Positions 5,439 through 51,716 of a DNA stretch of 52,035 bases are shown piece after piece. A program made the position numbers and the translations under genes. The stretch spans positions 69,925 through 121,959 of the forward strand of contig CAINNF010000018.1 of the NCBI GenBank assembly GCA_903851045.1, in the 5' to 3' direction. This stretch comes from Candidatus Adlerbacteria bacterium. Its GTDB lineage: Bacteria; Patescibacteriota; Minisyncoccia; Phycocordibacterales; SBAW01. The notes beneath the pieces were generated by a model. That model ran no database searches. It had not been told where the DNA came from and was given only the letters and a program-made list of their open reading frames with translations. Every line of letters begins with the position of its first letter. Position 1 is the stretch's first letter.

Positions 5439-6430
5439 CCACTGCCTGGCTCCCGATAGTGTGGTTTTGCATCATCGGTCTTGAGGTCGTGCTCTATATG
5501 CTACTCGATGGCACGAACCTCGGCGTCGGACTCCTCTCGCTCCTGCCACAGAGCGACAAGCGACGCTTGGTGCTCATGCACGTGTTCGGTCCGATGTGGG
5601 ATGCCAACGAGACATGGCTCCTGATCGCCGCTGCGACCACGTACGGCGCGTTCCCCATCGTCTTTAGTGTCGCACTCAACGCGCTCTATATCCCTGCCAT
5701 GACGCTCGGCGCGGGGCTCATACTGCGCGTGGCATCATACGAGTTCTACGCGCACACGCAGAGGACCAAGCACCTATGGGCGACACTGTTCGGTATCGGC
5801 AGTTTGTTAGCCACCATCGGTCTCGGACTCTTGCTTGGAGGACTGCTCAGCGGCATACGGATGACGAGGGGACACTTCTCGGGCGGCCCCTTCGACTGGG
5901 CAACGCTCGTCACCTTCCTCATCACCACTGGCATCGTCACCGGTTTCGTGGTACTCGGCTACGCGCACATGGTGCGCCAGTCAAAGATCGTGAGTAAGAA
6001 AGGATTCGAACGGATACTGCTCTACAGCATACTCACGTTCGCCCTTCTCGCGAGCGCCACAGCCGTAGTGCCGAACACGAACTACCTCTTCCTGTCTCGT
6101 TGGAGCGACCCACGGTACATGCCTATACTCTGGAGCGTGGTAGGGCTCATAGCCGCATCTACGGCGCTTCTGGTGTACGCTATACACAAGCGTGACACCG
6201 CGCTGGTCCCCTGGTTGTGTAACACGATCTTCATCATCGGCTTCTTCGGCATCGTTGTTGGTACCTTCCCCTATATCCTCCCTCCAAACATCACCATCTT
6301 CGACGCCGCCTCCTCGCCCACGACACAAACCTTTATGCTCTGGGGCATCGGCCCCATACTCCCCATCGTCCTCGTCTACAACTACTACATCAGCCGCCTC
6401 TTTCGAGACGATGATTCATACGAGATCTAA
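5435..6430 (+). CDS. cydB: cytochrome bd ubiquinol oxidase subunit II
   Basis: Y.LLDG..LGVG and GPMWDANETWL motifs; ATGA overlap with cydA; ITIFDAASSP.T near the C-terminus. Confidence 0.93.
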   Translation: MTTAWLPIVWFCIIGLEVVLYMLLDGTNLGVGLLSLLPQSDKRRLVLMHVFGPMWDANETWLLIAAATTYGAFPIVFSVALNALYIPAMTLGAGLILRVASYEFYAHTQRTKHLWATLFGIGSLLATIGLGLLLGGLLSGIRMTRGHFSGGPFDWATLVTFLITTGIVTGFVVLGYAHMVRQSKIVSKKGFERILLYSILTFALLASATAVVPNTNYLFLSRWSDPRYMPILWSVVGLIAASTALLVYAIHKRDTALVPWLCNTIFIIGFFGIVVGTFPYILPPNITIFDAASSPTTQTFMLWGIGPILPIVLVYNYYISRLFRDDDSYEI

Positions 6431-6434
6431 ACCT

Positions 6435-6508
6435 TGGTGCGGATAGGGAGAATCGAACTCCCGCCCGGTGCTTGGGAAGCACCTATTCTGCCACTAAACT
6501 ATATCCGC
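6435..6508 (-). tRNA. tRNA-Gly(CCC)
   Basis: Reverse complement GCGGATATAGTTTAGTGGCAGAATA-GGTGC-TTCCCAA-GCACC..GGGAGTTCGATTCTCCCTATCCGCACCA with encoded CCA. Confidence 0.95.
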
Positions 6509-6540
6509 CTTCGTCTCGCTATCGCTCGGCTTCGGCGGAC
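6504..6540. repeat. REP-like palindrome (TCCGCCTTCG...GCTTCGGCGGAC family)
   Basis: Same ends as the palindrome at 13664-13690 inside rnpB; overlaps the 5' end of tRNA-Gly. Confidence 0.65.
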
Positions 6541-6599
6541 GCGGTCCGCGAGGTCGAGCGAGCATGCACACCGAAAACTCGTTCGCTAACGAAGACACT

Positions 6600-6992
6600 T
6601 TACCATACAAACAACGTATGAAATAGGCTCGTCCACCAACTTTCTTTCAGCTCGCTATCGGTCGTCGAGGCTTTCGTGTCGCGAATGACGTCTATCTCGC
6701 CTTCGCCCGGTTTAGCGACGCCGAACCGGGCGCGGATCTGCGCCTCCTCTCCCCTTGTGGAGCTGATCTCGCTCAGTGTGGTGGTCACCCCCCGCTGTTG
6801 CGCCTCGACGCGTGCGAGCTCGGCGTTCGCCTCCTCCTTCGCTTGGGCCGCCTCGGTCATCTTGCCGTACATACCCCACGCAGCACGCGCGAGCACGACC
6901 GTGACCACCAAGAGTAGCAATACTCCGACGCCCTTTATGGACAGTCGGAGGATTTCCTCGCTCCGACTACGACGTTTCTTGAATTCGCGCAT
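6600..6992 (-). CDS. septum formation initiator FtsB/DivIC-like protein
   Basis: Basic N-tail, TM helix, coiled coil, then 'EAQIRARFGVAKPGE..I'. Start moved to ATG 6992, 9 nt after TATACT. Confidence 0.8.
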   Translation of the reverse strand: MREFKKRRSRSEEILRLSIKGVGVLLLLVVTVVLARAAWGMYGKMTEAAQAKEEANAELARVEAQQRGVTTTLSEISSTRGEEAQIRARFGVAKPGEGEIDVIRDTKASTTDSELKESWWTSLFHTLFVW

Positions 6993-7016
6993 GATACCCA
7001 GTATACTACTCTCTAT

Positions 7017-7121
7017 ATGTTTGGAAAAAAGCACCAGCGTAATCTGCGCATCTTTACTGCCGTACTCACCATCCTTATCATCGCCAGCATGATAGCCGCC
7101 TATTTCTCGATCTTGATATAA
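7017..7121 (+). CDS. small single-TM peptide (34 aa, not in ORF track)
   Basis: MFGKKHQRNLRIFTAVLTILIIASMIAAYFSILI*: basic N-terminus plus TM helix, preceded by TATACT; fills an otherwise empty gap. Confidence 0.6.
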   Translation: MFGKKHQRNLRIFTAVLTILIIASMIAAYFSILI

Positions 7122-7174
7122 AAACAAGGGCGGGACATTACTGTCACCGCCCCACACCAAACGTTACATCTTGA

Positions 7175-7498
7175 TCACACACATTGTGTCTGTCGCAGCA
7201 ACGCCTGCTTCTTTTTCGTTATCTCTCCAAGCAAGAACCGTGCGCGTTTACCATAGCGAATACCGCCGGGCGGACGAAGAAGCAGGTGCTCCTGTCCTGG
7301 AGGTGCCGCTATTACAGCAGACCGCAACCGAGACCAATCAACATCAGTAAGCGCTCGCAGATGCTTGACCGAGCATTCTGCGCACTCCTGCCGTCGTCGC
7401 CATTCCTTCGCAAAGTCAGCATCCATAGAGACCAAGAGCGTAAATAATGCATTCCATGCCGGGTCGTCTGCTGCACGACCCGCCTGTATAAAGTCCAT
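7175..7498 (-). CDS. hypothetical protein
   Basis: 107 aa ORF with strong SD (AGGAGG) 8 nt upstream of ATG. Confidence 0.6.
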   Translation of the reverse strand: MDFIQAGRAADDPAWNALFTLLVSMDADFAKEWRRRQECAECSVKHLRALTDVDWSRLRSAVIAAPPGQEHLLLRPPGGIRYGKRARFLLGEITKKKQALLRQTQCV

Positions 7499-7552
7499 AT
7501 TCGAGTCCTCCTACTGTCCAGAAAAAACCGTACCACACTTATACGTAAAACA

Positions 7553-38440: not shown

Positions 38441-38893
38441 ATGAAACAAACCGATCTACGTGAGGCGATGAAGGACGCTATGCGTGCCAAGGATGCTGTG
38501 CGGCTGTCCGTCATTCGCGGTATCTTGACCGCTGTTACCAACGAGCTCGTCGCCAAGGGTGGCAAACCGACCGACGAGTTGTCCGAAGAGGACATCACCG
38601 CCATCATCCGCCGCGCCAGCAAGCAGCGAAAGGATTCGATCGAGCAGTTCGAAAAGGGTGGACGTGCTGACCTCGCCGAAGGCGAGAAGGCCGAACTCGC
38701 GATCATCGAGTCGATGCTCCCCGCCCTCATGTCCGAGACGGACGTGCGCGCCGCAGCGACCGCCAAAGCAGCGGAGCTTGGCATCACCGACAAAGAAAAA
38801 GCCAACCAGCTCATGGGTGCGCTCATGAAGGACCTCAAAGGCAAGGCCGACGGCACCGTCGTCAAAGCGGTCGTCGACTCGATGTTCGCATAG
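38441..38893 (+). CDS. GatB/YqeY domain protein
   Basis: MKDAMRAKD..RLSVIR, KQRKDSIEQF..GGR.DLAE.EKAE, LKGKADG. Confidence 0.93.
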   Translation: MKQTDLREAMKDAMRAKDAVRLSVIRGILTAVTNELVAKGGKPTDELSEEDITAIIRRASKQRKDSIEQFEKGGRADLAEGEKAELAIIESMLPALMSETDVRAAATAKAAELGITDKEKANQLMGALMKDLKGKADGTVVKAVVDSMFA

Positions 38894-38911
38894 TCGCCGC
38901 CACAGCACGCA

Positions 38912-39457
38912 TTACCTCGCACTTTTTGTGCGAGCACTGGCTGTTCGCACCACGAACCGCCACAGTCGCCGTGCGCACGCACCCGCATACTCGACACCAA
39001 CACGCGGTGTCACCTGTATGTCTTGTGCAGCAACGACGACTCCACGGTCTTCGAACCACAGACCGACCTCCTTCCCCAGCGGCTGCCCACTGAGTCCCCG
39101 GTCGACCGCAAGCGCCTTCGTGAGCCGCGCAGGGCCAACGATGTTGCCCGCACCACGGATAAGCACTGCCGACGGCATACCCTCGGCCTGACACGCGACA
39201 TTGAGCATGTGGTGCATCCCGTAGGTAAAGTACACGTAGGTGGTGCTGGGCGGGCCGAACATGGGCGCGGTGCGAGCCGTCTTCCCGAACCGGGCATGCG
39301 ATGCACGATCTTCGGCCCCCGCGTACGCCTCGGTCTCGGTGATCATCAACGAGACCTCGTGCCCCTCCACCATGCGCACCACGAACATACCCAGAAGTGC
39401 GCGAGCGACCACCGCCGGGTCTCGATCAAAAAATGCCGACTCAAGCACGGTGCGCAT
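38912..39457 (-). CDS. mpg: DNA-3-methyladenine glycosylase (MPG/AAG family)
   Basis: ARALLG, ITETEAY, D.ASHA, YVYFTYGMH..LN, AVLIRG, GPARL, TPRVGV. Confidence 0.93.
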   Translation of the reverse strand: MRTVLESAFFDRDPAVVARALLGMFVVRMVEGHEVSLMITETEAYAGAEDRASHARFGKTARTAPMFGPPSTTYVYFTYGMHHMLNVACQAEGMPSAVLIRGAGNIVGPARLTKALAVDRGLSGQPLGKEVGLWFEDRGVVVAAQDIQVTPRVGVEYAGACARRLWRFVVRTASARTKSAR

Positions 39458-39542
39458 GACCGGATTGTACCAAAAACGCCCCACCCGAATAGCGCACATT
39501 GCCGCCCCTTTTCTTTTCTGTTAGGATGTGTTGGTGCTACTA

Positions 39543-39614
39543 GGCCCTATCGTCTAACGGTTAGGACAGCGCCCTCTCACGGCGTAAATTGGGGTTCGAT
39601 TCCCCATAGGGTCA
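39543..39614 (+). tRNA. tRNA-Glu(CTC); integration target
   Basis: GGCCCTATCGTCTAACGGTTAGGACA-GCGCC-CTCTCAC-GGCGT-AAAT-TGGGGTTCGATTCCCCA-TAGGGTCA. Confidence 0.95.
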
Positions 39615-41290
39615 CAAGTTGGAGAAAATCTCTCCTCAAGTGCTTTGAAAGCGTTTTTACATTGGAAACTCAAGGTTTTTTGAGAGAGGGTGAGTTCTGA
39701 AAAGATTCCCCGAACGATAATCTCCTTTTCTGCTGATTCGGCTAAATCATAAACAACCGCAACGTCATTTAGAAGTTCTGAAAGTCTGATTGCTTCTTTA
39801 ACAATTTGTGACATTGAAGCGTCAGATGCAGCTTCTTGCGATTGAAGTTGGTTGAGTTCTGCCGTTAGCTTTGCTTCTTCTGCGAGCAGCGCTTCTGGCG
39901 TGTACGCGCCACTGCGCAGCAACATGAGCTTGTTTGTACCGATGTATGCCAAATCCTCACGCACCTTGCGTTTGCGACGATCGATCCGGTCCAATTCCAC
40001 CTGTCGCTTGTTGTCGAGGACTGCGATGTCAGTTGAGGTACGAGCATCAATCTCTGCTTTTTCATCCTCAGTGAACACGAGTTGTTTAATAACGTTACCT
40101 ATGGCTTTCTCAAGTTCGTCAGCCCTCACACTCTTTAACTTGTTTGGGCAGTCTTTTGTGCATCGAGAGTAAAGGTAGTGAATGCCTTTCTTGGTGTAAG
40201 GCGTGTAGATGCGACCGCATTCGCACCGCACGAGTCCCCGGTGAGCGAGCGGCACCTTATCAGGATAGTGAATGCTTACGTTGTGTTTGCTAAGTGCTAA
40301 TTGCACTTTCTCAAACAATACAGGGTCGACGAGCGCCTCGTGCGAGGTGCTGGGCACCCAGTCATGGTTATTGCCGTGAGTGAGTCCGATGTAAAATCTA
40401 TTCGTGAGAATTTTGTGTACGCCATTGAAAGTAACCGGCCGGGCGACCTTGGGCGTGTTTTTAAAATACTCGTCCTCATCATCCTCATCCATCAGCATTT
40501 CGTTTTGTGAGCGCTTGCGGCGCTGCGGTTGCATTGTGAAGCCCTGTTCATTGGCCCACCTTGCAAGATCAGACAAGCTCCAGTCGCCGGTAGCTGCAAG
40601 TTCAAACATTCGTTTGATGATAGGAGCTCTCTCAGGATCTAACGGCTTCCAATCCATGTTGCCTTCGTTGAGGTAGCCCACCGGAGCGCGGTTTGTCACT
40701 TTGCCTTGCTCTCGCACTTCATGGATGGTTTCCGTAACTTTTTCACTTGTGTTTTCGGCATGGTGCTGTGCAAACATCTGGTCTGCATTCATGTGCATAG
40801 AGCCAGATGCATTTTTCTCATACTTAGCCCAAACAAAGCGCACATCTATTCCTTGTCGAATGAGTTTTTTGACCAAGGCTCCGTCGGTGCTATTTCGACT
40901 GATGCGATCGTAGCAAAGGACGATGACTCCCTTAAATAGACCGCGTGAAAGGTATCCGATCAAGCGTCGAAATTTGGGGCGGCTAATACTTACCGTTACA
41001 AGACCATTGCTCCCAACCACAAACTCATCATCTTCCTCAAACCCCGAGTGCTTTTCAGAGATAATACCGTCAGTACAAAAACCCGCGATAGTGATCGCAG
41101 CAACCGATAAATGATGTTGGCGAGCGTATGAAATGTTCTGCTTTTTTTGAAAGCCGAGCGAGTTCTTTTGGTTGTTAGGATCTTTGTCCGAACGGCGGCC
41201 ATACGCAAGATAACTATCTCGATACTTACCCGACACGATGTCTTTCTCGAGCTTCGTAAAATCTGTTTTCTGTGTAGTTTTACTTTCCAT
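39554..41290 (-). CDS. large serine recombinase/integrase; 3' end reads through antisense tRNA-Glu
   Basis: YGRRS catalytic motif, DRISR, APVGYLN recombinase domain, IL.N.FY.G, HEALV, CECG..C..C zinc ribbon, coiled coil; last residues (CDPMGNRTP..) are encoded by the tRNA antisense. Confidence 0.92.
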   Translation of the reverse strand: MESKTTQKTDFTKLEKDIVSGKYRDSYLAYGRRSDKDPNNQKNSLGFQKKQNISYARQHHLSVAAITIAGFCTDGIISEKHSGFEEDDEFVVGSNGLVTVSISRPKFRRLIGYLSRGLFKGVIVLCYDRISRNSTDGALVKKLIRQGIDVRFVWAKYEKNASGSMHMNADQMFAQHHAENTSEKVTETIHEVREQGKVTNRAPVGYLNEGNMDWKPLDPERAPIIKRMFELAATGDWSLSDLARWANEQGFTMQPQRRKRSQNEMLMDEDDEDEYFKNTPKVARPVTFNGVHKILTNRFYIGLTHGNNHDWVPSTSHEALVDPVLFEKVQLALSKHNVSIHYPDKVPLAHRGLVRCECGRIYTPYTKKGIHYLYSRCTKDCPNKLKSVRADELEKAIGNVIKQLVFTEDEKAEIDARTSTDIAVLDNKRQVELDRIDRRKRKVREDLAYIGTNKLMLLRSGAYTPEALLAEEAKLTAELNQLQSQEAASDASMSQIVKEAIRLSELLNDVAVVYDLAESAEKEIIVRGIFSELTLSQKTLSFQCKNAFKALEERFSPTCDPMGNRTPIYAVRGRCPNR

Positions 41291-41483
41291 GTTTTTTGTC
41301 TTGCCATCTGCCTTGTGCAATGAGTCGGATGCGCATGCGGCGTAGCGCTTCACCTAATTCTACTATCTCCCGAATGTCTTCATCAGTAAAGTCGATTTTG
41401 CCCGTTTCCACGACCTTTTTAGGGTCATAGTTTTTGGGTATTGCAACGATAGCCCTTTCTCCATGGCGCGTTGCTTTAGCCAT
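41280..41483 (-). CDS. small hypothetical protein coupled to the recombinase
   Basis: 67 aa; overlaps the upstream gene by 8 nt and the recombinase start by 11 nt. Confidence 0.65.
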   Translation of the reverse strand: MAKATRHGERAIVAIPKNYDPKKVVETGKIDFTDEDIREIVELGEALRRMRIRLIAQGRWQDKKHGK

Positions 41484-42027
41484 GGTAGTTCTTCGGGATC
41501 GAGAATTTTTTAACTAGCTCATCTCGTCCGTCTCTAAGTTCTTTTGGTAACGCGCCAGTCTGAATGACTGAATTTTTGTTTGTATTCTTTGTAGTACTCT
41601 CTGTAGTAGTATGTTCAAACGCCCGAACTTGTTGGTCATTTTCAGCAAACTGGTTTGCTGAATTCTGCAAACTACTAGGTTGTTTTATTCGCTCGAGCAG
41701 CTTTACCAGCTGATCAGCATGTATGCGAAAGTACCGCTTGCACGGTATCCCTTTTCGTTTAACTTCAAGTACACCGAGCTTCTTCCAAATCTTGATTGCG
41801 CGATCCTGCTCGGAGCGATTTAGATGTATCTCTTTATGAAAATCTTTAATTGTTTTATAGACCCATCCTTCCCACGCCCCTTTGCCGTCCCAGTAAAGCA
41901 GTTGTGAGAGAAATAAACCTGCTCCTGCGCTGTTGGCTAATTGCGCGAGTGCTCGGTTGAATACGACCGGTTTTGCTCCAACAATTTCAAGGAGTTGAGA
42001 ATTAAGATTTTTGCGGGTGCCTTTCAC
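41476..42027 (-). CDS. phage-replication-initiator-like HTH protein
   Basis: AGLFLSQLLYW..G....WVYKT..., HTH-like helix, G.P.KRYFRI, Thr-rich TTESTTKNT linker. Confidence 0.7.
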   Translation of the reverse strand: MKGTRKNLNSQLLEIVGAKPVVFNRALAQLANSAGAGLFLSQLLYWDGKGAWEGWVYKTIKDFHKEIHLNRSEQDRAIKIWKKLGVLEVKRKGIPCKRYFRIHADQLVKLLERIKQPSSLQNSANQFAENDQQVRAFEHTTTESTTKNTNKNSVIQTGALPKELRDGRDELVKKFSIPKNYHG

Positions 42028-42152
42028 CCTTTATTTGTCCCTCGACACCCCCTCTCCCTTGCACTACCTTTTTGGGTTGGAGTGACAACATAAAAAAGCG
42101 ATAAAAATTGCAGTGGAGCTCTTCACTGTCAACAGGGCAATGATCCAATGAC

Positions 42153-42863
42153 CTACAAGGTATCCCTCGTAGGTTCTATTATCCGCACGTTATCGATGAA
42201 GTACCCGGTGCCACTCCGATCATTTTGAACAATCGACGAGCGTGGAATGTTAAATTTTTTCTCGACCTGAGTACGTATCTCCTCGACGGCTCCGCGCACA
42301 TCCTCAGTCGTGATATTTTCGTCTCTCGTGTTTAGAAAATCTACAAGATTCTGGGTACTTACCGGTTTTTTCTTTTCGGCGAGATATTGCAAGAGCTTAT
42401 AGCGGCGCGCATGCATTCGCATCACGTAGGGCTTCTTGGTACTACCCTCAAGTGTGAGTGCAGCCTCATGTTTCGCTGGATACGATAAAACAAATTGGTA
42501 GTGCTCGGTTGAGGCGCGCAGTTGTTGCTCCATGTCGAGTACGTAACGTGCTAACGCTGCTCTGTCTTCGAGCACTACTGTGTAGCCGGTTGGCACATGC
42601 GGCCAATGTCGCGGATCGGTATCCATCACGCTCTGTGGTTGTTGTACGGTCATCAAATTAAACTCAAAGTCCGGTCTCAGATCGTCTGCCATTTTTTGCA
42701 ATGCTCGTCGTAGTGCGTCCGAATCCCTAAGCAGCAAATCGGCCGCAAGTTCGTCGAATTTAATCGAGACACGAAGAATGTTCGGCTGTTTTTTGTACCG
42801 CTGCTGGATAAAGGTCGCCAGTCGCAATCGCCGTTCCAAAGATGGGTCTTTTACCGCCGTCAT
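42153..42863 (-). CDS. hypothetical protein with C-terminal winged-helix-like domain
   Basis: RYKLLQYLA..K.PVST..L...VRGAVEEIR...IVQN..GTGY. Confidence 0.65.
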   Translation of the reverse strand: MTAVKDPSLERRLRLATFIQQRYKKQPNILRVSIKFDELAADLLLRDSDALRRALQKMADDLRPDFEFNLMTVQQPQSVMDTDPRHWPHVPTGYTVVLEDRAALARYVLDMEQQLRASTEHYQFVLSYPAKHEAALTLEGSTKKPYVMRMHARRYKLLQYLAEKKKPVSTQNLVDFLNTRDENITTEDVRGAVEEIRTQVEKKFNIPRSSIVQNDRSGTGYFIDNVRIIEPTRDTL

Positions 42864-42938
42864 CGCTTCATTCTAGGCCCTACTGCCGCCAGTAGCAAAG
42901 CAGTGGTAATAGGTGTCTGCCGATGGTAAAGTTGGGGA

Positions 42939-43118
42939 ACAATTCAATAAAAAGTGCCTAACCTCTAGCTATTTGCTAGGGCAAGGCAGTCAAGCCTCAA
43001 CGAAGACACTGAACCTCACGTTCAGCCACTCTTCGTTGAGCCATATCTGGAAACGGGTATGGGGCCGCAAGGCCCGGCTGGCGTGGGGTTCTGTGTCTTT
43101 TACCCCACGCCGGTTTAT
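42939..43118 (+). ncRNA. candidate structured RNA or cis-regulatory leader
   Basis: Five consecutive hairpins including GAAA and GCAA tetraloops, preceded by TGgTAAAGT and ending in a terminator-like stem. Confidence 0.5.
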
Positions 43119-43137
43119 TAACCTAAGCGCGGAAATC

Positions 43138-43563
43138 ATGGACAATACACACATTTGGGACAAGGTGCTTGGTTCGGGTGAAGCGGCACAGTACGAGTTT
43201 TCAGTCGGCAATAGGTACCGTTCCGTTGCATGCATTTTATGGTGCGTTTTAACTTTTTTTATCGGTACTCCAATAGCGATTTTTTATTACCTCTTTTATC
43301 TTCCACGTGCGAGGGTGTACGCATTCACCGATCACCGTGTTCTGATTCATACCGGCTGGCTCTCCACCAAACTAGTTTCTACTGACTACCAGAAAATTAC
43401 CGACGTGACCGTAAAAGAACCGTTTTTCCAACGGCTCTTTTTCGGGACCGGTACGATCGAGATAGATACCGCAGGCACTAATCGGAAGGACGTGATCCTT
43501 TCGCATATAGAGCGTCCGTATGAGATCAAGAAGAAGCTCGATGAGCTGCGTAAACATCACTAA
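43138..43563 (+). CDS. bacterial PH (bPH_2) domain membrane protein
   Basis: TM hairpin then Y.FTD.RVLI.TG.LS...KI.DV.V......RLFFG.GTI.I.TAG. Confidence 0.85.
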   Translation: MDNTHIWDKVLGSGEAAQYEFSVGNRYRSVACILWCVLTFFIGTPIAIFYYLFYLPRARVYAFTDHRVLIHTGWLSTKLVSTDYQKITDVTVKEPFFQRLFFGTGTIEIDTAGTNRKDVILSHIERPYEIKKKLDELRKHH

Positions 43564-43566
43564 GCA

Positions 43567-43764
43567 ATGCTTCCCACAACGTTTAGCCCTGTGCCATTTC
43601 GAGCAAAGAAGCTTCGCCGGCTGTACAAGGAGTCGACCGGCATAGAGCTTTCCCCGAAGGACACCCATGTATTGTGGCTTTGCATCGTGCGGACTCAGCA
43701 CGCGCTGTGGCGCGCAGAGAATCGTGCCTATTTGCCTAGGCAAAAGAGACTTTTTCGACTATAG
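43567..43764 (+). CDS. small hypothetical protein
   Basis: 65 aa ORF starting 3 nt after the previous stop; 'LRRLYKESTGIELS' helical motif. Confidence 0.45.
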   Translation: MLPTTFSPVPFRAKKLRRLYKESTGIELSPKDTHVLWLCIVRTQHALWRAENRAYLPRQKRLFRL

Positions 43765-44024
43765 GAAAATCGGAGAGAATCGGAATCTCCTTTTGGAAAA
43801 AATCGTTATTACTCAAGGTTTTATTGAAATATCCGACTATCCGATTCCGATCGGTGCCGAACATTGGCCTTACCTTCGCGACACGGCGTCGAAGCCTCGC
43901 TAGTGGCAACACTTTCCTTACTGTGGTCGGACCTGCGCACACGTGGGCATTTAGGCCTAAATTACGCGGCCCAAGAAACTTACTCTGCCCATTTTTGGTG
44001 ATTTAGCAGTATAATGCCACAACT

Positions 44025-45713
44025 ATGGCAGCAAAGGACGATAAGCTAATTCTCGATAAACGTCTAGAGGAGCAACGCGCTGCGGTGGCCAATACCATGT
44101 CGGAGTCGGAGTATTTTGAGGTTTTCACTGCCGAACAGATACTCAAAGATTTCGACCTATCATACGAAGAAATACAATCCGGTATTGTTGACGGGAGCCG
44201 CGATGGTGGTATCGACAGCGCCTACGTCTTCGTTAATGGTGACCTTGTGCAAGAAGATAGCGACCACTCAACCGTATTGAAAGATGTGGTTATAGATCTT
44301 GTCATCATTCAGTCAAAGTCAGCCGAAGGATTTGAAGAAACGGCAATCCAAAAAATTACCTCCGCGACAACCGATCTTTTTGACACATCCCACACTCTTT
44401 CAAGCTATAAAGGCACCTACAACGAAGGGCTGCTACGCATCGCTCAACTATTTCAAGCCACTTATCAAAATCTTGCCGGGCGCCTACCGCGCCTTCGCGT
44501 CACATATCACTACGCTACTAAAGGCGATAGCGTACACCCTAATGTCTCAGATAAAGCCAAGGTGCTCGAGCAAACAATCAAAGACTTGTTTTCCTCCGTC
44601 GAGGTCAGCGTGAATTTCCATACCGCACGAGCTTTGATAGATCTCGCTAGACGCACACCAAAGTCTACACGTCAGATAGTTGTTACAGAGTCCATTTCCG
44701 CCGCCAAAGGCACAGCTTTTATTGCTCTCGCAAAACTCAAAGACTTTTATACTTTTATTCTCGATGATGGTGGGAAGCTTGCGTCACACATCTTTGAGGC
44801 GAACGTGCGCGATTACTTGGGAGATGCTGCGGTCAACGAAGGGATACGTCAGACATTGAGTGCCCCGCAGACCGAAGACTTTTGGTGGTTAAACAATGGA
44901 GTGACCATCTTGTCCTCACAAGTTACGCTTAGCGGCAAGACACTTACCATAGAGAACCCTGAGATAGTGAATGGTCTTCAAACTTCTCGTGAGATATTCG
45001 ATTTCTTTAACAGTGGTGGTGGGCCGGCCGACGAGCGAGATGTCCTCATTCGGGTAGTTGTTCCAACAGCTGCTGAAAGTCGCTACAACATCATTCGTGC
45101 GACGAATAGTCAGACCGCCATCTCGCCTGCGTCGTTGCGCGCCACCGATCCGATTCAGCGCGATATAGATGAATACCTGCGCGCTTTCAACATTTTCTAC
45201 GATAGGCGTAAGAACTACTACAAGAACCAAGGTAAGCCTATAAAGAGCATTGTGGGTATTCCTCAACTCGCTCAAGCGGTCGAGGCAATAGTTTTGCAAC
45301 AACCCAATACTGCCCGTGCTCGCCCGTCGTCTTTAATAAAACAGCAGGAAGATTACGAAAAGCTCTTTACCTCGAACTACCCGATTGAGGTCTACCGCGC
45401 CTGCGTTGATATTATAAAGGCCACCGAAGCTTTTCTGGCCAATCACCCTGATGAAATGGACTCTGTTGAGAAAAACGATCTCAAATACTACGTGGCAATG
45501 ATCACAACAACGATCCTGCTCAAGACGGTTAATCCTACCCCTGTGCAAGTTGCTACTCTAGCCGGGACTAGCATCAGTGAAATAGCACTTGAACAGGCCT
45601 ACAAAACAGCAAAGGAAAAATATAAGAATCTTGGCGGCGACGATACTGTAGCAAAAGGCCCACAAATGCTGGCTGAGGTAGTCTCTGTATTAACTCAGGG
45701 TTCTCTTTTTTAG
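44025..45713 (+). CDS. AIPR family protein (abortive infection phage resistance)
   Basis: DGGIDS..IIQSK N-domain; FEANVRDYLG, WLNNGVTI, IVNGLQTS, ATNSQ. Confidence 0.9.
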   Translation: MAAKDDKLILDKRLEEQRAAVANTMSESEYFEVFTAEQILKDFDLSYEEIQSGIVDGSRDGGIDSAYVFVNGDLVQEDSDHSTVLKDVVIDLVIIQSKSAEGFEETAIQKITSATTDLFDTSHTLSSYKGTYNEGLLRIAQLFQATYQNLAGRLPRLRVTYHYATKGDSVHPNVSDKAKVLEQTIKDLFSSVEVSVNFHTARALIDLARRTPKSTRQIVVTESISAAKGTAFIALAKLKDFYTFILDDGGKLASHIFEANVRDYLGDAAVNEGIRQTLSAPQTEDFWWLNNGVTILSSQVTLSGKTLTIENPEIVNGLQTSREIFDFFNSGGGPADERDVLIRVVVPTAAESRYNIIRATNSQTAISPASLRATDPIQRDIDEYLRAFNIFYDRRKNYYKNQGKPIKSIVGIPQLAQAVEAIVLQQPNTARARPSSLIKQQEDYEKLFTSNYPIEVYRACVDIIKATEAFLANHPDEMDSVEKNDLKYYVAMITTTILLKTVNPTPVQVATLAGTSISEIALEQAYKTAKEKYKNLGGDDTVAKGPQMLAEVVSVLTQGSLF

Positions 45714-45763
45714 AAACCGGACTGTATGGACCTGATGCGTTCCTATTGATATGCTTCGGGTTA

Positions 45764-46279
45764 ATGAAATACCACGTCCAGCCAGCATACGATTTCTACC
45801 GGAAATTCATCTACAACGAGGAGCTTCAAGCTTTGCTGCGCAAGCACCACAAGCATGTTGCCGGTAGTGTCCCATCAATTTATTGGGAGCTTTTCGGTGC
45901 TATTCTGACGGGAGACAAAGGTAAGGAGGGGTATGGTTCTGATCTTGAGCACCATGAGGTTAAGTCGTCAGTGCAAGGTGCAAGCTTTGAATACCAATAT
46001 CACTTGAATGCTGGCAAGCAGAAGCTCCTTGAAGACATTAACGTAGACCATGTTTTCGTATCCTACAGCCCCGACTACAAAGATATTGACGTGCGACTGG
46101 TTAAAGGATCGGCGCTTAAAGAGCGCTTCGACAGTTGGATGCCCGGTTTGATTGCAAACTACGAAGGAGAGACTCGTCGCCAGCGTTATCGCAAAAACAT
46201 ACCTTACGGAGTGGTCGCCCGGAGCGGCGAGCTCATGATGCAAGTGCGGCAGGGCGAATTAGTTGCTGTCGGCCGATAG
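45764..46279 (+). CDS. putative PD-(D/E)xK restriction endonuclease
   Basis: WELFG...GSDL..HEVKS spacing; convergent with and overlapping a C5 methyltransferase. Confidence 0.55.
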   Translation: MKYHVQPAYDFYRKFIYNEELQALLRKHHKHVAGSVPSIYWELFGAILTGDKGKEGYGSDLEHHEVKSSVQGASFEYQYHLNAGKQKLLEDINVDHVFVSYSPDYKDIDVRLVKGSALKERFDSWMPGLIANYEGETRRQRYRKNIPYGVVARSGELMMQVRQGELVAVGR

Positions 46280-47423
46280 GCTGCAATGGTAGCGAATTCA
46301 AATAGTGCAGCCCGATCCACTCCACTGCAGGCACGCAAACTGCGTCTCCGAAACCGAAAAGAACTTGGTTAAGAGAAAGGCTCGGATCAATTGCGAAGTC
46401 ATCTGCGCCCATTAACCTCGCCGCCTCGTTTCCATTGAATAACCGAGCGTTAAAAGTTCCTTTGCCTGCACGAAGTATGATTTGCCGTGCACTTCCTCCT
46501 TTCGGCGTTCTTAGGCAACCTGCAATTCCATCCGAACGAAGTTCGACTGTTGAGCGTTTTTCGCCGTCACGCATGCGCATTCGACGAAAAGCCGGGAAAT
46601 ACAGATAATCATCCTCTTTCATTGTTTTTCGCACGAGCTGACGATGCCGTTCATGCATCTGATTAAACAGGTAGTCGGTTCGCTCTTTGTCCCACCATTC
46701 TTCGCTTTGATCGATAATGTCTTCAAGGAGAATAGTTCTTTTAGGCAAATTTGGTAGCTGGTGAAAATACCAGCGCAGATCCGCATTCGTTTCGATGTAT
46801 TTGATGATTTTTTCCGAGCGTGCATCTGATGTCCGAAGCGCATACTCCTGTTCCATGCTACCCGTCGGAAGTGCCTGTACAATCGTGTCGTGCACTCCAA
46901 GTATAAAAAGGCGTACTCGACTCTGAGGTACGAAGTTAGCAGCGTCGAGTCGGAGCAAATCGATACTGTAACCTAAATCGTTTAGCGTACTCAAAACAGA
47001 CCTTAAATCTTTTCCATCATTTGATGTAAGTAGTCCTTCAACATTTTCAAGCAAGATAAGGGGCGGGTTTGCTTCACCATGCTCTTGCTTCATTTCTTTC
47101 ACTACCCGTACAAACTCCCAAAACGCTGAGGACTCTCCTTTGTTTATGCCGCCGCGCGCACCGGCTACAGAAAGATCAGTGCAAGGAAAGGATGCGTGCG
47201 CGAGGGTGACCTTTGGAACGTCAGAACCACGCGTCTTCGCTATATCTTGCGTAACGTAGTGGTCACTTTTAAAGTGATTTTCGTATGCACGTGCTTTTTC
47301 GGGAGCATAGTCGTACGCACGCACAGTACTCCAGCCGGCCCGCTCAAGCCCAAGAGTTACGAGTCCGATTCCAGCAAAAAAGTCAGCCACTGTTTTATGC
47401 TTGGAAGGATTGGTCTTTCGCAT
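46233..47423 (-). CDS. DNA (cytosine-5)-methyltransferase
   Basis: FFAGIG (I), FPC (IV), ENV (VI), QSRVR (VIII), RLMG and FGDAV (IX/X). Confidence 0.95.
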   Translation of the reverse strand: MRKTNPSKHKTVADFFAGIGLVTLGLERAGWSTVRAYDYAPEKARAYENHFKSDHYVTQDIAKTRGSDVPKVTLAHASFPCTDLSVAGARGGINKGESSAFWEFVRVVKEMKQEHGEANPPLILLENVEGLLTSNDGKDLRSVLSTLNDLGYSIDLLRLDAANFVPQSRVRLFILGVHDTIVQALPTGSMEQEYALRTSDARSEKIIKYIETNADLRWYFHQLPNLPKRTILLEDIIDQSEEWWDKERTDYLFNQMHERHRQLVRKTMKEDDYLYFPAFRRMRMRDGEKRSTVELRSDGIAGCLRTPKGGSARQIILRAGKGTFNARLFNGNEAARLMGADDFAIDPSLSLNQVLFGFGDAVCVPAVEWIGLHYLNSLPLQPIGRQQLIRPAALAS

Positions 47424-47525
47424 GTATCCATTGTACCAAGAACTGCCTGAAGCAAGAAAGAAGTGTATTTTCTACCTTTAGCTTCCCCTTGAAACCGGAT
47501 TGCGTTACAATCAGGGCACTTTTTT

Positions 47526-48602
47526 ATGCCCCCTCAAACTACCAACTACGAAATCGATTTTATGACAGTAGGCGCTGGCGAAAGAAGCGGCGACGCTATT
47601 GCACTGCGAGTCTGGGATAACACCGGGCAGCAGCAGGTTTTTGTAATTGATGGCGGTACCAAAGAGACGGGTAAACTACTCGTTCAACACATCCTCACTG
47701 TTTACGGTACAAATGTAGTGAACGCAGTCATTTCAACTCATCCTGACGGAGATCACGCTTCCGGACTCACTGAAGTACTCGAGAACTTGGACGTGAAGTT
47801 GCTCATGATGCATCAGCCATGGGATCATGCAGCCGACATAAAAGCTTCTTTTGAGAGCGACGGCCTTACTCATTTGGGCTTGCAACGAAAGATTAAAGCG
47901 GAATTGGGTTATGCCCACGAACTTAAAAAAATCGCTGACCGCAAGAAAATACCCATCGTTGAGCCGTTCGAAGGTGGCCAATGGAACGGCGGTCTTTTTC
48001 GAGTGCTCGGCCCCTCGCAAACGTATTACGAGTCACTTCTCCCACAATTCCGCGACATGCCGGAGACAAAGGAGCCGCTTGGTTTAATTCCCGGCTTGAT
48101 CAAGACGGCCACAGAGAAACTGGAAATGGTTGCCGAAGCCTTCAATATCGAAACACTTACGGACGGTAACGAGCACTTTAGTGCCGAGAACAACACGAGC
48201 ACCATCCTTCTCTTCAATCTCGGTCAAGACAAGGTACTTTTTACGGGCGATGCGGATGCCGATGCGCTTACGCTTGCAGCAGACTATGCGGCAGGCAATG
48301 GTATTTCGCTTACAGATCTCAAAATCCTGCAAGTGCCGCACCACGGTAGTAAGCAAAATGTTGGCCCGACCATACTCGATCGCATCAAAGCCCCGCACGC
48401 ACACATTTCCGTTTCCCCGGGCGCAGCGCCGAAACACCCGTCTAAGAAGGTAATAAATGCGCTCATACGCCGTGGCGCACGTGTTTTTACAAACAATGCT
48501 GGATTATCATCACCCGCATGCTACCGGAGCGCAGGTGTGCCTGCGCGGCCGGGATACACCGATATCTCAGCGCATCCTTTTTATAACGAGGTGGAAGTAT
48601 GA
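47526..48602 (+). CDS. MBL-fold (ComEC-like) metallo-hydrolase, soluble
   Basis: GDAI, VIDGG, THPDGDHASG, N.TS, FTGDA, VPHHGS, KHP; no TM or competence domain. Confidence 0.9.
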   Translation: MPPQTTNYEIDFMTVGAGERSGDAIALRVWDNTGQQQVFVIDGGTKETGKLLVQHILTVYGTNVVNAVISTHPDGDHASGLTEVLENLDVKLLMMHQPWDHAADIKASFESDGLTHLGLQRKIKAELGYAHELKKIADRKKIPIVEPFEGGQWNGGLFRVLGPSQTYYESLLPQFRDMPETKEPLGLIPGLIKTATEKLEMVAEAFNIETLTDGNEHFSAENNTSTILLFNLGQDKVLFTGDADADALTLAADYAAGNGISLTDLKILQVPHHGSKQNVGPTILDRIKAPHAHISVSPGAAPKHPSKKVINALIRRGARVFTNNAGLSSPACYRSAGVPARPGYTDISAHPFYNEVEV

Positions 48603-49315
48603 GCACTATACCTTCATTCGATAGGTACACGATGCAGGCACGGCTGTTGCCGATGTTTGTTTTACTTTTACCACTCGGTCTTTTACTGCTTGCTTGGTAT
48701 CCGACAACTTCCGTCTGGCTCGACGCAATCGAGACACTTGGCCTGCCGGTCGTCTTGACCGCACTACTTTCCCAACTCGGCCGCGATCTCGGAAAGAAAA
48801 AAGAACCTGCACTCTTCGCGGAATGGGGTGGTATGCCAACAGATCGCATTCTCTCGTTCAGCAAGACCTTCTTGGATGGTGCAACCTTCGCACGTTACCG
48901 CGCAAAGCTCTCAGCGCTTCTCCCGTCGATGCAATTTCTCGACGAGGCTCAGGAAACAGCATCGCCTGAAGGCGCGCTGCAAGTTTTCCGGACTTGCACC
49001 AACTTTCTGCGCGAAAAGACACGCGATCATGGCAATTTTGCTCTGATTTTTGCCGAGAATATAAACTACGGCTTCCGGCGCAACCTCTGGGCTATGCGAC
49101 CAGCAGGTATCACCATTTCCGCTCTAGCTACCATCGGTGCTGCATCATCAATTTTGCTTACACCAAACAATCCGATCTCGCCGCTCATCATCGTTGCAAT
49201 TTGCATCAATGCGTGTCTTTTCGTGTTTTGGGTACTACGCATCAACCGTAACTGGGTGCGTGTTCCGGCGGAAGAGTATGCAAAGCAGCTCTTTGCTGCT
49301 TGCGAGGTTTTGTAA
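48599..49315 (+). CDS. hypothetical 4-TM protein coupled to the MBL hydrolase
   Basis: ATGA overlap; 2 TM, soluble loop (WGGMPT...ENINYGFRRNL), 2 TM. Confidence 0.8.
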   Translation: MSTIPSFDRYTMQARLLPMFVLLLPLGLLLLAWYPTTSVWLDAIETLGLPVVLTALLSQLGRDLGKKKEPALFAEWGGMPTDRILSFSKTFLDGATFARYRAKLSALLPSMQFLDEAQETASPEGALQVFRTCTNFLREKTRDHGNFALIFAENINYGFRRNLWAMRPAGITISALATIGAASSILLTPNNPISPLIIVAICINACLFVFWVLRINRNWVRVPAEEYAKQLFAACEVL

Positions 49316-49316
49316 A

Positions 49317-49409
49317 TCACTTTGCTAAAATAGCCTCAAGCGTTTGGATGTCCGAAGGAAGCAAACTGCTGTATTTACTGAGTTCTGAAAGCCAAGTAAA
49401 CTGGTCACA
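49317..49409 (-). other. displaced recombinase C-terminal tail at attR (CDQFTWLSELSKYSSLLPSDIQTLEAILAK*)
   Basis: Begins TGT GAC in the same frame as the recombinase at the left core; stop codon lies 1 nt from the stop of the convergent gene. Confidence 0.7.
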
Positions 49410-49543
49410 AATTTTTGGAGCTTATTTTGCAACGCCGTTTGGAGACCCCAAACGGGAAATTTTGAGCAGTTGGAACCAGAAACAGAAAACCCACCGAAGC
49501 GGGTTTTTCCGCTGGTGGGCTTGAGACCGACCAAACATATGGA

Positions 49544-49924
49544 CTATATTAGAAGCTCGAAAGTTCCTTCAATGAAGTTGGGAACTTCACTTGAACCCGG
49601 ACCAATCGGAACATCACTGAAGTATATGGTCCACTGAGGGGGAAGGATTTTGCCCAGATGGTTGGGCTCGCTCTCGAAATGGAGCCAGGACGGACCGCGC
49701 GATCTACTTAGATCGCGCAATGGCAAGGCGGCACTCGTGAGCCAAAAGCTCGTTGCCGCCTCACCCTCAAAGGCGTGCACTTTTAGGCCGTCGATTCGGC
49801 CGACCACTCGATAAGCCGTCCCTTCTGCGCTCCAGTTAAAGGCGAAGATTCTTCCGATGCACTCTGCCTCGGAAGGTAAGCCAGCTTTTGGCAGTAGATT
49901 TGCCAATTGTTGTGAGAGAAACAC
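49544..49924 (-). CDS. hypothetical protein (cassette cargo)
   Basis: GTG start with SD AAGGAG; TTGACA-N17-TAAAAT at 49990-49962. Confidence 0.7.
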   Translation of the reverse strand: MFLSQQLANLLPKAGLPSEAECIGRIFAFNWSAEGTAYRVVGRIDGLKVHAFEGEAATSFWLTSAALPLRDLSRSRGPSWLHFESEPNHLGKILPPQWTIYFSDVPIGPGSSEVPNFIEGTFELLI

Positions 49925-50004
49925 GGAAATGCTCCTTTCTTTGTTGAAGAACCTAAAATCTATTTTATAATAATATTATATAATTGTCAATATTAAAATA
50001 CATT

Positions 50005-50104
50005 CTAAACTAAGGCTTTTTCGGCATCAAAAAGCTTTCCAAACTCCTGCCACTGATATAACTCCCGCACCAACTGGTTCCAATTAGCACTAACTTGGGT
50101 CACA
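50005..50104 (-). other. orphan C-terminal tail 2 starting at GGGTCACA core (VTQVSANWNQLVRELYQWQEFGK...)
   Basis: 21/31 aa identical to the tail at 51759-51854; similarity stops exactly at the tRNA-derived core. Confidence 0.7.
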
Positions 50105-50156
50105 CCGACTTTCGAAAACGAGCTCCGCTTTTCAAGCGGGGCCATTTTCGTTCGGT

Positions 50157-50305
50157 GTGACCTAAGCAGGCAATCTGCATTGCCTGCGTTGGGGAATCGA
50201 AAGACGGAGCGTTGCCAAGTCAGCAGACTTGGCCGCGAGTCGGGGTCGCGAAAATTCCGAAGCGACGGCGAGGAATTATTTGTGACCGATCCCCATAGGG
50301 TCACA
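50157..50305. repeat. palindromic element bounded by inverted copies of the tRNA-Glu 3' end
   Basis: TCCCCATAGGGTCACA (50290-50305) equals 39601-39616; inverted copy GTGACCTA..TGGGGAATCGAA (50157-50201) is interrupted by a 9-bp hairpin. Confidence 0.75.
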
Positions 50306-50379
50306 GAGTTTGACTTTTAATATCTTAGTGTTATATTTTATTCGGTTGAAATAGCTCACAGCTTCATAGAGAGGCTTCG

Positions 50380-50916
50380 ATGGAACGCAGTAAAATCGTT
50401 GCGGTTGCACAAAAGGTAGACGGACAGCCGGTCATCTTCTCGCCACCAACTGAGCGTGTGCTCGGTCGGCAGGTGCTGGAGTGGTCGGGTTACTGTGGCA
50501 CCTACGGGCAAGGGGGGCCGGGATTCTTTGGCCTGCGCCTCGCTGCAACTGGTGTGTACCCGGAAGAGTGGCTCATACTTCGCCTCTGGAGTGCGAACGA
50601 CTGGTTGAACGTGAATGGGCATTGGCTCGGTGCGAATCCTGGCCAGTACACCGACGCTACCCAGCCACTCTACTCTAACTTCCACGGGGCAAAGTGGGAC
50701 AGGTTCACCCCGCTGGTCACCAACCAGAGGATTACGAAATTCGACGTCCAAAAACGGACGCTCGACATCGAGATCGGCGACGCCAAGATCGTGCTGACCG
50801 AGGACCCGACCACACGCCCGATCTACGCTGGCACGCAAGAGCCACGCACACTCTCGCCAGGCGACGACCTACGTGAGGCGTGGATCATCGCCGCCGCACC
50901 CTGGGTCCGCGTCTAA
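50380..50916 (+). CDS. hypothetical protein (cassette cargo)
   Basis: 178 aa, SD GAGAGG, TTGACT-N16-TATATT upstream; GTYG.GGPGFFG motif. Confidence 0.75.
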   Translation: MERSKIVAVAQKVDGQPVIFSPPTERVLGRQVLEWSGYCGTYGQGGPGFFGLRLAATGVYPEEWLILRLWSANDWLNVNGHWLGANPGQYTDATQPLYSNFHGAKWDRFTPLVTNQRITKFDVQKRTLDIEIGDAKIVLTEDPTTRPIYAGTQEPRTLSPGDDLREAWIIAAAPWVRV

Positions 50917-51155
50917 AACCAAAAAGTCCCGCATTTTTCGCAGGACCGCTTTCTTTTGTTCACGCGGCAGTATCCAACCACCCAGCACGACCCCTCCCCG
51001 GGTCGTGCTCTTTTCTTACATATTATTCTTCCCGTGTCCCTCCATCCACCAGCTAAATATGACAACACAAAAAAGCTAAATTAATCGGACTCCCCAATTC
51101 CCCTCAATTTCCAAAAGAAAAAGCCGCCGCGTGAGCGGTCGGCTTTGCGAGGCAA

Positions 51156-51716
51156 TTACGCCCCTTTTTCTTTTGGAAGGCTTTTGACAAGCGCATCTTT
51201 TACGGCGCGTTGGGCCTCTTCGGGAGATTTCACGCAAGTGGTCGTCTCTTTGCCCGATTGCATATCGATGTGGGTGAAGGTGACACCGCACCAACTGCTC
51301 ACAAGCCAGTACTCGATAGCGTTGAGTATGGCACTCGGCAGGTCCATGAACCAGCCTTTGAGGAAGCGGTCGAGACAGAACCAGCTCCATGGCCAGATAA
51401 TGGCGCCGAGTAGGTTTCCGCCGACGTCCTTCCATCCTTTGTGTCTGAGATGAGAACTGAGGCTCTGCATCCCCACGCAGCAGTGCTGGAAGGAGAAGGT
51501 GGTGAGGAAAGCGAAGGTGAAAATACCCAACCCCGCGTAGACCTTCCAAGCAACTGCGAGATAGGCGAATGCCGCTGAGACTTCAAACCCCCAGCCAGCG
51601 ACCGCCGCTGCGACAATACTTGCAGCGAACAGCAGACCGAGGTAGTGCAGGAACACCAGCGCGAGAACGAAGGGGAGGGCGACCAGCCCCAGCACCCTCA
51701 AAAGGACTTTCTTCAT
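51156..51716 (-). CDS. hypothetical membrane protein (cassette cargo)
   Basis: ATG 51716 with SD GGAGGA; several TM segments; TTGACA-N17-TATTGT overlapping tail 3. Confidence 0.7.
   Translation of the reverse strand: MKKVLLRVLGLVALPFVLALVFLHYLGLLFAASIVAAAVAGWGFEVSAAFAYLAVAWKVYAGLGIFTFAFLTTFSFQHCCVGMQSLSSHLRHKGWKDVGGNLLGAIIWPWSWFCLDRFLKGWFMDLPSAILNAIEYWLVSSWCGVTFTHIDMQSGKETTTCVKSPEEAQRAVKDALVKSLPKEKGA

Follow-up and report, generated by a model that had tools for sequence, protein, structure and literature searches.

A large serine recombinase gene that probably spans its own attachment site in an integrative element of Candidatus Adlerbacteria

In the integration-dependent immunity of mycobacteriophages, the phage attachment site (attP) lies inside a gene and integration changes the C-terminus of its product, although the protein affected is the repressor and not the integrase, which is of the tyrosine type there. 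In phage Mx8, the changed form of the integrase reportedly has altered activity. The IntP/IntX pair of Mx8 is the closest analogue of the system described here, with attP located in the 3' end of the integrase gene in both (Tojo et al. 1996, cited in PMC4383910), and the Islander paper describes the integrases of Mx8 and SSV as extending across attP (PMC4383910). The SSV-type (type I, "suicidal") archaeal integrases are similar in having attP inside the open reading frame (ORF), a tRNA target, genes rebuilt in tandem, and hybrid genes (PMC7253208), and Badel et al. described integrases whose gene contains attP as "so far restricted to archaea" (PMC7253208). Here we describe a 9.8-kb integrative element (39617-49410) carrying a large serine recombinase (LSR) gene that probably spans its own attP, in a stretch of 52,035 nucleotides (hereafter the window, meaning this whole stretch) from Candidatus Adlerbacteria bacterium (assembly GCA_903851045.1, contig CAINNF010000018.1, positions 69,925 to 121,959).

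The Mx8 integrase is a tyrosine recombinase, with a chemistry and fold different from those of the window enzyme, and represents a single phage, whereas the LSR family was identified in dozens of genomes and metagenome contigs. SSV-type integrases are also tyrosine recombinases, and their gene is cut into two inactive halves, whereas the LSR family loses a 28-residue add-on and keeps the full LSR fold. The window enzyme, a serine recombinase, works like the Mx8/SSV class without being a member of it, and the family would extend the design of an integrase gene spanning attP from tyrosine to serine recombinases. With the integrases of phiC31, Bxb1, SPbeta, and LI/A118, the family shares the domain order, the fold, a short core, and a distal motif of the type read by the zinc-ribbon domain (ZD), but the canonical chains end where the tail of the LSR family begins. 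No description of attP inside the int gene of canonical serine integrases was found in the literature examined, and full-text literature searches returned no serine integrase whose gene was described as running across attP.

We consider that the LSR gene spans attP and that integration separates the body of the gene, at attL, from its tail codons, at attR 9.8 kb away, with a probability of roughly 0.88 for this anatomy. The open frame on the minus strand (39554-41353, reaching a GTG at 41353) ends in ..FSPTCDPMGNRTPIYAVRGRCPNR* within tRNA-Glu(CTC), and the start codon is likely the ATG at 41290; the 578-aa length from this codon equals that of an identical database protein (P0002). A sequence-only reading of the window had described a recombinase frame running through the antisense strand of tRNA-Glu, a recurrence of the attachment core at 49403, and behind it a tail in the same frame whose stop packs against a convergent gene, and each of these was seen: the frame ends inside the tRNA gene (39543-39615), copies of the core lie at 39610-39617 and 49403-49410, and the tail stop TGA (49317-49319) lies a single base away from 49313-49315, the TAA with which the convergent ORF 48599-49315 ends. 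The codon phase of the core on the minus strand (TGT GAC C..) is identical at 39610 and 49403, so that a crossover anywhere in the core keeps the frame into the 28 tail codons. The two parts of the gene are thus found at opposite ends of the element (body at 39554-41290, tail at 49320-49403), and the displaced tail is untranslatable at attR because the flank just upstream of it holds an in-frame TAA. A motif of the W-L-S-E-L type adjoining a core occurs only once in the genome. The element is inserted at the very 3' end of the tRNA-Glu(CTC) gene, which is whole after integration; the antisense frames of relatives stop at varying positions within the tRNA.

The domains of an LSR were identified throughout the body of the enzyme. 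The N-terminal catalytic domain matched Pfam Resolvase (E 1.3e-10), with a Y-x-R-x-S motif aligned to the invariant R29/S31 of alignment A2 that places the catalytic serine, followed by a match to Pfam Recombinase (E 2.3e-12) and one to Zn_ribbon_recom at 23.8 bits, just below the cut-off of 25.3. The four cysteines of the zinc ribbon, C351, C354, C373, and C377, were invariant among 19 sequences. Long helices at 423-512 in the model, together with whole-chain alignments to the SPbeta, Bxb1, and phiC31 integrases, correspond to the coiled-coil insertion of the zinc-ribbon domain. Foldseek/VIA-align comparisons gave Z of 11-14 with the LI, SPbeta, Bxb1, and phiC31 integrases (4kis, 9y66, 9iu2, and 9tep) and Z of 11 with the catalytic domain of TP901-1.

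The tail had been described as helix-like, and structure prediction agrees. In an AlphaFold2 model of P0113, an intact homologue (19 intact sequences as input; mean predicted local distance difference test score, pLDDT, 75.5), the tail is predicted as two confident helices, 559-567 and 571-585, with pLDDT by 10-residue block of 76 and 88, and 72 for the last six residues, versus a disordered tRNA-coded replacement in the model of the integrated form of the window (built on 30 sequences), where residues 577-599 are coil with pLDDT ~45. The chains of solved LSRs come to their ends at model positions 541-550, with one phiC31 row reaching 569; the tail therefore extends past the shared fold as an add-on, and no canonical domain is missing from the integrated enzyme. 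The integrated enzyme probably still works as a recombinase, without the family-specific C-terminal module.

We examined how homologues end in samples of genomes, database proteins, and metagenomes. Among 300 genomes of the same order, a relative was found in 8, with 7 close ones at 38-53% identity, of which 5 run antisense into tRNA-Glu, 1 into tRNA-Asn, and 1 is cut by a contig start. Up to 20 kb of further sequence was examined beyond six of the same-order relatives, and in 4 of these extended loci (L024, L025, L026, and L029) the far end holds W-L-S-E-L, about 20 further residues, and a stop, on the same strand behind a short core. In the genome collection, 66 loci comprised 39 joined to a tRNA, 14 intact with a tail, 6 others, 5 at contig ends, and 2 without the C-terminal part. 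The 39 tRNA-joined loci used tRNA-Glu (34), tRNA-Leu (2), tRNA-Val (1), tRNA-Ala (1), and tRNA-Trp (1), and 15 of them had an orphan in-frame tail 2.1-11.5 kb upstream, at a distance of 6.5-11.5 kb in 14 and ~2-3 kb in a decayed one, including elements in tRNA-Val, tRNA-Leu, and tRNA-Trp; in the other 24, the available flank was too short or no orphan tail was found. The best 80 of 326 metagenome loci were 33 tRNA-joined (29 with Glu, 2 with Arg, and 2 with Ala), 25 intact, 8 at contig ends, 7 without the C-terminal part, and 7 others, proportions that are biased because the query was an alignment of intact forms. A WLSEL-type tail among homologues, set as a test beforehand, was present in 11 of 120 database proteins, 14 of 66 genome loci, and 25 of these best 80 of 326 metagenome loci. 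No further family member was found in a class-level sample of 400 genomes, and a scan of viral contigs with the intact-form alignment identified no relative.

The design is widespread in small-genome bacteria. The closest tail-bearing database relative of the window LSR, P0008, has 70% identity over the queried region, and the 120 database proteins comprised 98 with an antisense-tRNA end, 11 with a tail end, and 11 with another end. The C-terminus of the first group consists of 10-20 residues of translated antisense tRNA, a systematic annotation artefact of gene callers in this family, and most database entries of the family consequently present the integrated isoform. The 2014 Islander paper stated that serine integrases were not known to target tRNA genes (PMC4383910), which the family contradicts by using mostly tRNA-Glu and also the tRNAs for Val, Leu, Ala, Trp, Arg, and Asn. 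Members at these other tRNA genes include L038, L040, L066, L082, L092, L118, L130, L147, L181, and L020, with cores that change to match the target, such as TGTGGGC at the tRNA-Leu site of L040, and the family therefore switches its tRNA targets.

A circular relative was identified in the metagenomes. L139 is a whole contig of 11,834 nt whose first and last 127 nt are identical and whose N6/N4 methylase gene is split by the contig ends, and it is for these two reasons read as an 11.7-kb circle; a terminal overlap was not found in any of 12 other whole contigs tested. Its recombinase ORF (5787-7541, 584 aa) runs uninterrupted across the core, which lies inside the ORF, into the tail. The integrated relative L063 is joined to tRNA-Glu(TTC), with an enzyme body 96% identical to that of L139, and blastn aligned L139 8206-11815, 376-1280, 2811-4415, and 4736-7453 with L063 958-4567, 4910-5804, 7058-8660, and 8915-11661, in the same order. 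This collinearity indicates that the L063 element is an L139-type circle opened at the core inside the gene, and from this pair of sequences we infer attP x attB recombination by the family enzyme. The tails and tail-adjoining DNA differ between the two (L139 7454-8205 versus L063 195-957) despite the 96% identity of the bodies, which suggests that elements swap tails, a situation resembling the hybrid genes of suicidal integrases in archaea. A FastTree phylogeny of 94 enzyme bodies cut before the tail (62 tRNA-joined and 32 intact, after exclusion of 6 duplicates and of rows that contained stops or lacked the N-terminus) required at least 18 changes between the tRNA-joined and intact states, and well-supported branches forced 12 of these changes; the same lineages thus include both states, which do not define two subfamilies. 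The proposal that the circular and integrated forms encode different isoforms is thus borne out by the intact gene across the core of L139, the collinear L063, and the orphan tails at the far ends of integrated elements.

One-way insertion of large DNA relies mainly on serine integrases as tools, and a separate factor is generally considered necessary for their directionality. The gene in the circle reads across the core and ends in the 28-residue two-helix tail, and in the mechanism we propose, the full-length enzyme made from the circle would perform integration. Integration leaves the body fused to 18 antisense-tRNA codons and the tail codons stranded at attR without a start codon, and the integrated copy would make a shorter-tailed enzyme from a message running head-on into the tRNA gene. 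The topology of the element would thereby set which isoform is made, with the tail most likely modulating activity or stability. We regard the chances that the isoforms differ in some function as about even. The family offers a natural, testable model of self-encoded control, in which integration rewrites the C-terminus of the enzyme.

A more specific idea, which we hold only tentatively and consider doubtful, is that the two-helix tail could be a built-in directionality module, so that DNA topology and not a separate factor would decide the direction of recombination. The circle alone would then supply the full-length enzyme, adapted to attP x attB; the integrated form alone would supply the tail-less enzyme, able to act on attL x attR or gated differently for it; and tails would be exchangeable parts moving between elements. 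The idea draws on the position of the tail at the C-terminus, the site of engineered fusions to the recombination directionality factor (RDF) and of RDF contact in phiC31. The extreme C-terminus of phiC31 integrase is part of the interface with the RDF, and the solved SPbeta and phiC31 complexes have RDFs fused to the integrase C-termini. In engineered integrase-RDF fusions, a C-terminal module changes directionality (PMC5737554), although these are artificial fusions of a separate protein; hypothetically and by analogy, the natural tail could act like a fused RDF. A regulatory role for the C-terminal module is plausible on the same analogy.

Among the alternatives, one would have integration inactivate the enzyme, as in the suicidal SSV type, with the island locked until a second copy or a tandem junction restores the gene. 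The tail codons at attR are indeed untranslatable, whole genes are re-formed at the junctions of tandem or accreted elements (L097, L083, and L032), and the near-identical bodies with different tails of L139 and L063 match the hybrid genes of archaeal suicidal integrases (PMC7253208). However, no more than the final 5% of the protein is exchanged and no canonical domain is lost, and the body is full length in 30 of 39 integrated copies (5 are broken and 4 cut by contig ends), above the expectation for dead genes unless all are young. We judge this alternative unlikely.

It is rather more unlikely that the gene spans attP with a tail that has no protein function, conserved only as a DNA arm of attP and swapped neutrally. 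We collected 36 tails (12 intact and 24 orphan), all conserved, with residue counts made on 35 (L081, with a one-codon gap, was omitted). The tail begins with W (35/35), L (32/35), S (35/35), and E (34/35) at positions 1 to 4, followed by I at position 12 (31/35), S at 15 (23/35), I at 16 (28/35), and L at 19 (30/35). The codons of the first positions are fixed even where synonyms exist, with Leu2 encoded by CTT in 32 of 32 and Glu4 by GAA in 34 of 34, and in the consensus of 37 intact gene ends the motif TGGCTTTC is mirrored by GAAA.CCG on the other arm, both motifs lying ~15-22 bp from the dyad next to GTGACC. A 9-bp motif at attP positions 16-24 is recognised by the ZD of LI integrase (PMC3783163), and by analogy the first tail codons (TGG CTT TCM GAA) probably double as the ZD binding motif of the attP P arm. 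Such constraint on DNA, the mirrored motif, an uninformative ratio of nonsynonymous to synonymous substitution (dN/dS) in the tails, and an enzyme body with a complete LSR fold without the tail can be cited in favour of a neutral swap. Nevertheless, conservation extends 36-69 nt beyond the W codon, past the usual half-site, the hydrophobic i, i+4, i+7 pattern coexists with free codon choice, all synonymous codons being in use at positions 12, 16, and 19, every one of the 36 tails is open for 23-39 codons, and the tail is confidently predicted as two helices. As synonymous choice is frozen early and free at 12, 16, and 19, constraint acts on the DNA in the first tail codons and on the protein in the later amphipathic pattern.

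Several observations weigh against the favoured anatomy, a gene spanning attP and split by integration. The 8-nt core by itself is weak evidence and is not significant, with 5 window matches to the 8-mer GGTCACAA versus 1.59 expected, and 5 reached in 1 of 100 shuffles. A 16-nt exact repeat of the tRNA 3' end (39601-39616 and 50290-50305) lies 880 bp further out than the attR core and is longer than the 8-nt core. The window's own P' (inner) arm, GAG GAG AGA, departs from the mirrored motif of the family. The dN/dS of the tails was saturated (mean proportion of synonymous differences, pS, 0.80; ratio ~1), and is for that reason uninformative and lends no support. In a search for the empty site by synteny, 40 relatives shared the left flank and the tRNA, and none shared 50300-51500, so that the locus yielded no empty site; the right border is not settable by synteny because the ancestral right neighbour, a Mur ligase gene, lies on another contig (C16). 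Eight pond-metagenome runs were found, all as contigs, and 4 of these (X1, X3, X5, and X6) were compared with 38500-51500; their contigs held no attP or attB joint and only the integrated form, continuous over 39588-51500, a result that says nothing on excision because contigs drop rare variants. Further, five single intact copies (L054, L055, L050, L081, and L077; extensions L098-L102) were identified in genomes of 4-7 Mb labelled Alphaproteobacteria, Bacteroidetes/Bacteroidota, Verrucomicrobiae, and others, and none of the five had a tRNA-Glu within 30 kb downstream. Upstream of these single copies were a coupling protein of a type IV secretion system (L055) and ArdC (L077), with defence genes downstream, including Gabija-like OLD + UvrD (L054), DUF6602 (L055 and L077), and SMODS (L077). 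The five may be tandem or accreted islands.

An element ending at the 16-nt repeat, whose circle would encode a recombinase stopping a few codons past the core and for which the WLSEL piece at 49320-49403 would be a relic, is highly improbable: the repeat exceeds the core in length and the guanine-plus-cytosine (GC) content climbs towards the host level only after ~50300, but the tail lies directly behind the core, in frame, in relatives from many genomes and is contiguous with the gene in the circular L139, serine integrase sites share a short core only, and 50305 is not a host border either, as relatives place the Mur ligase right flank on C16. The repeat at 50290, which the sequence-only reading had named as an alternative site, is itself real; as the end of the LSR element it does not stand, given the in-frame tails behind the core of relatives and the contiguous gene of L139.

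The GC content of the window is 0.43-0.54 from 39500 to ~50250 and rises afterwards, and the low-GC stretch that continues beyond attR is read as the scar of another integration in an island array and not as the end of the LSR element. Within it, extra copies of the core include one at 50280 on the minus strand, and a 15-nt inverted repeat (50094-50108 and 50152-50166) includes a sequence nearly identical to the core; the T-arm of the tRNA recurs as a 12-nt inverted copy at 50190-50201. The RNA fold of 50080-50310 (minus strand) was far stronger than that of shuffles (z -6.4), and a search of 49300-50450 against Rfam gave no family at threshold, with a sub-threshold rsmX match at E 0.14. The flank to the right of attR had 0 exact matches in metagenome contigs.

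In relatives, the gene after the syntenic tRNA-Glu(CTC) is a Mur ligase. In the assembly of the window (G000), contig C16 carries a second tRNA-Glu(CTC) copy (L183, 7944-8016), 94% identical to window 39499-39616 including 44 nt upstream, and 6.2 kb past this copy the Mur ligase gene; the contig of the window (C18) ends 1.7 kb after 50305. As the Mur ligase right flank lies on C16, ancestral DNA does not adjoin either 49410 or 50305. Islands and scars apparently form an array at the tRNA locus, and the locus in the window is probably an end of a larger island array divided between C18 and C16. Elsewhere in the family, doubled tails 0.9-2.5 kb apart, the orphan having its own core, were observed at L049 (4193/6683), L071 (7882/9623), L077 (8803/9957), L076 (1316/2167), and L083 (7809/8767), and are read as adjacent or nested att scars.

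Table 1. Features of the LSR element, its attachment sites, and the adjoining sequence (window coordinates)
Feature	Coordinates	Strand	Evidence or remark
tRNA-Glu(CTC)	39543..39615	+	ARAGORN; 3' end forms the B (chromosomal) arm of the attachment site
attL core GGTCACAA (plus-strand reading)	39610..39617		Shared cores of relatives are centred on GTGACC
LSR gene, integrated state	39554..41290	-	578 aa from ATG 41290; Pfam, PHROG integrase, fold matches to solved LSRs
18 antisense-tRNA replacement codons PMGNRTPIYAVRGRCPNR	39557..39610	-	Followed by stop TAG 39554-39556
Displaced exon-like C-terminal piece of LSR	49317..49403	-	28 codons 49320-49403 QFTWLSELSKYSSLLPSDIQTLEAILAK and stop TGA 49317-49319
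attR core of the LSR element	49403..49410		Second window copy of GGTCACAA
Replication initiation O-like / DnaD-like protein	41476..42027	-	PHROG phrog_9773, E 6.3e-27
Winged-helix / helix-turn-helix (HTH) protein, putative regulator	42153..42863	-	Pfam HTH_12, weak match
Bacterial PH-domain membrane protein	42913..43563	+	Pfam bPH_2, E 2.9e-15
AbiU / AIPR abortive-infection defence protein (cargo)	44025..45713	+	PADLOC AbiU, E 4.1e-190; Pfam AIPR
C-5 cytosine DNA methyltransferase (cargo)	46233..47423	-	Pfam DNA_methylase, E 1.9e-46; PADLOC MTase_II
MBL-fold protein, candidate defence family PDC-M48B	47526..48602	+	PADLOC, E 6.2e-79; not a beta-lactamase-type match
ORF without assigned family, convergent on the tail	48599..49315	+	Stop one base from the tail stop
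Low-GC stretch outside the LSR element	49411..50305		Extra cores in both orientations, structured segment, 16-nt tRNA 3' repeat at its end

Besides the recombinase, the element encodes a replication-initiator-like gene and defence cargo (Table 1), and the LSR family seems to be an important vehicle for defence genes among small genomes of the Patescibacteria type. The cargo differs among elements, with the circular relative L139 harboring a ResIII helicase and an N6/N4 methylase in place of the AbiU, C5 methylase, and MBL cargo (44025-48602) of the window.

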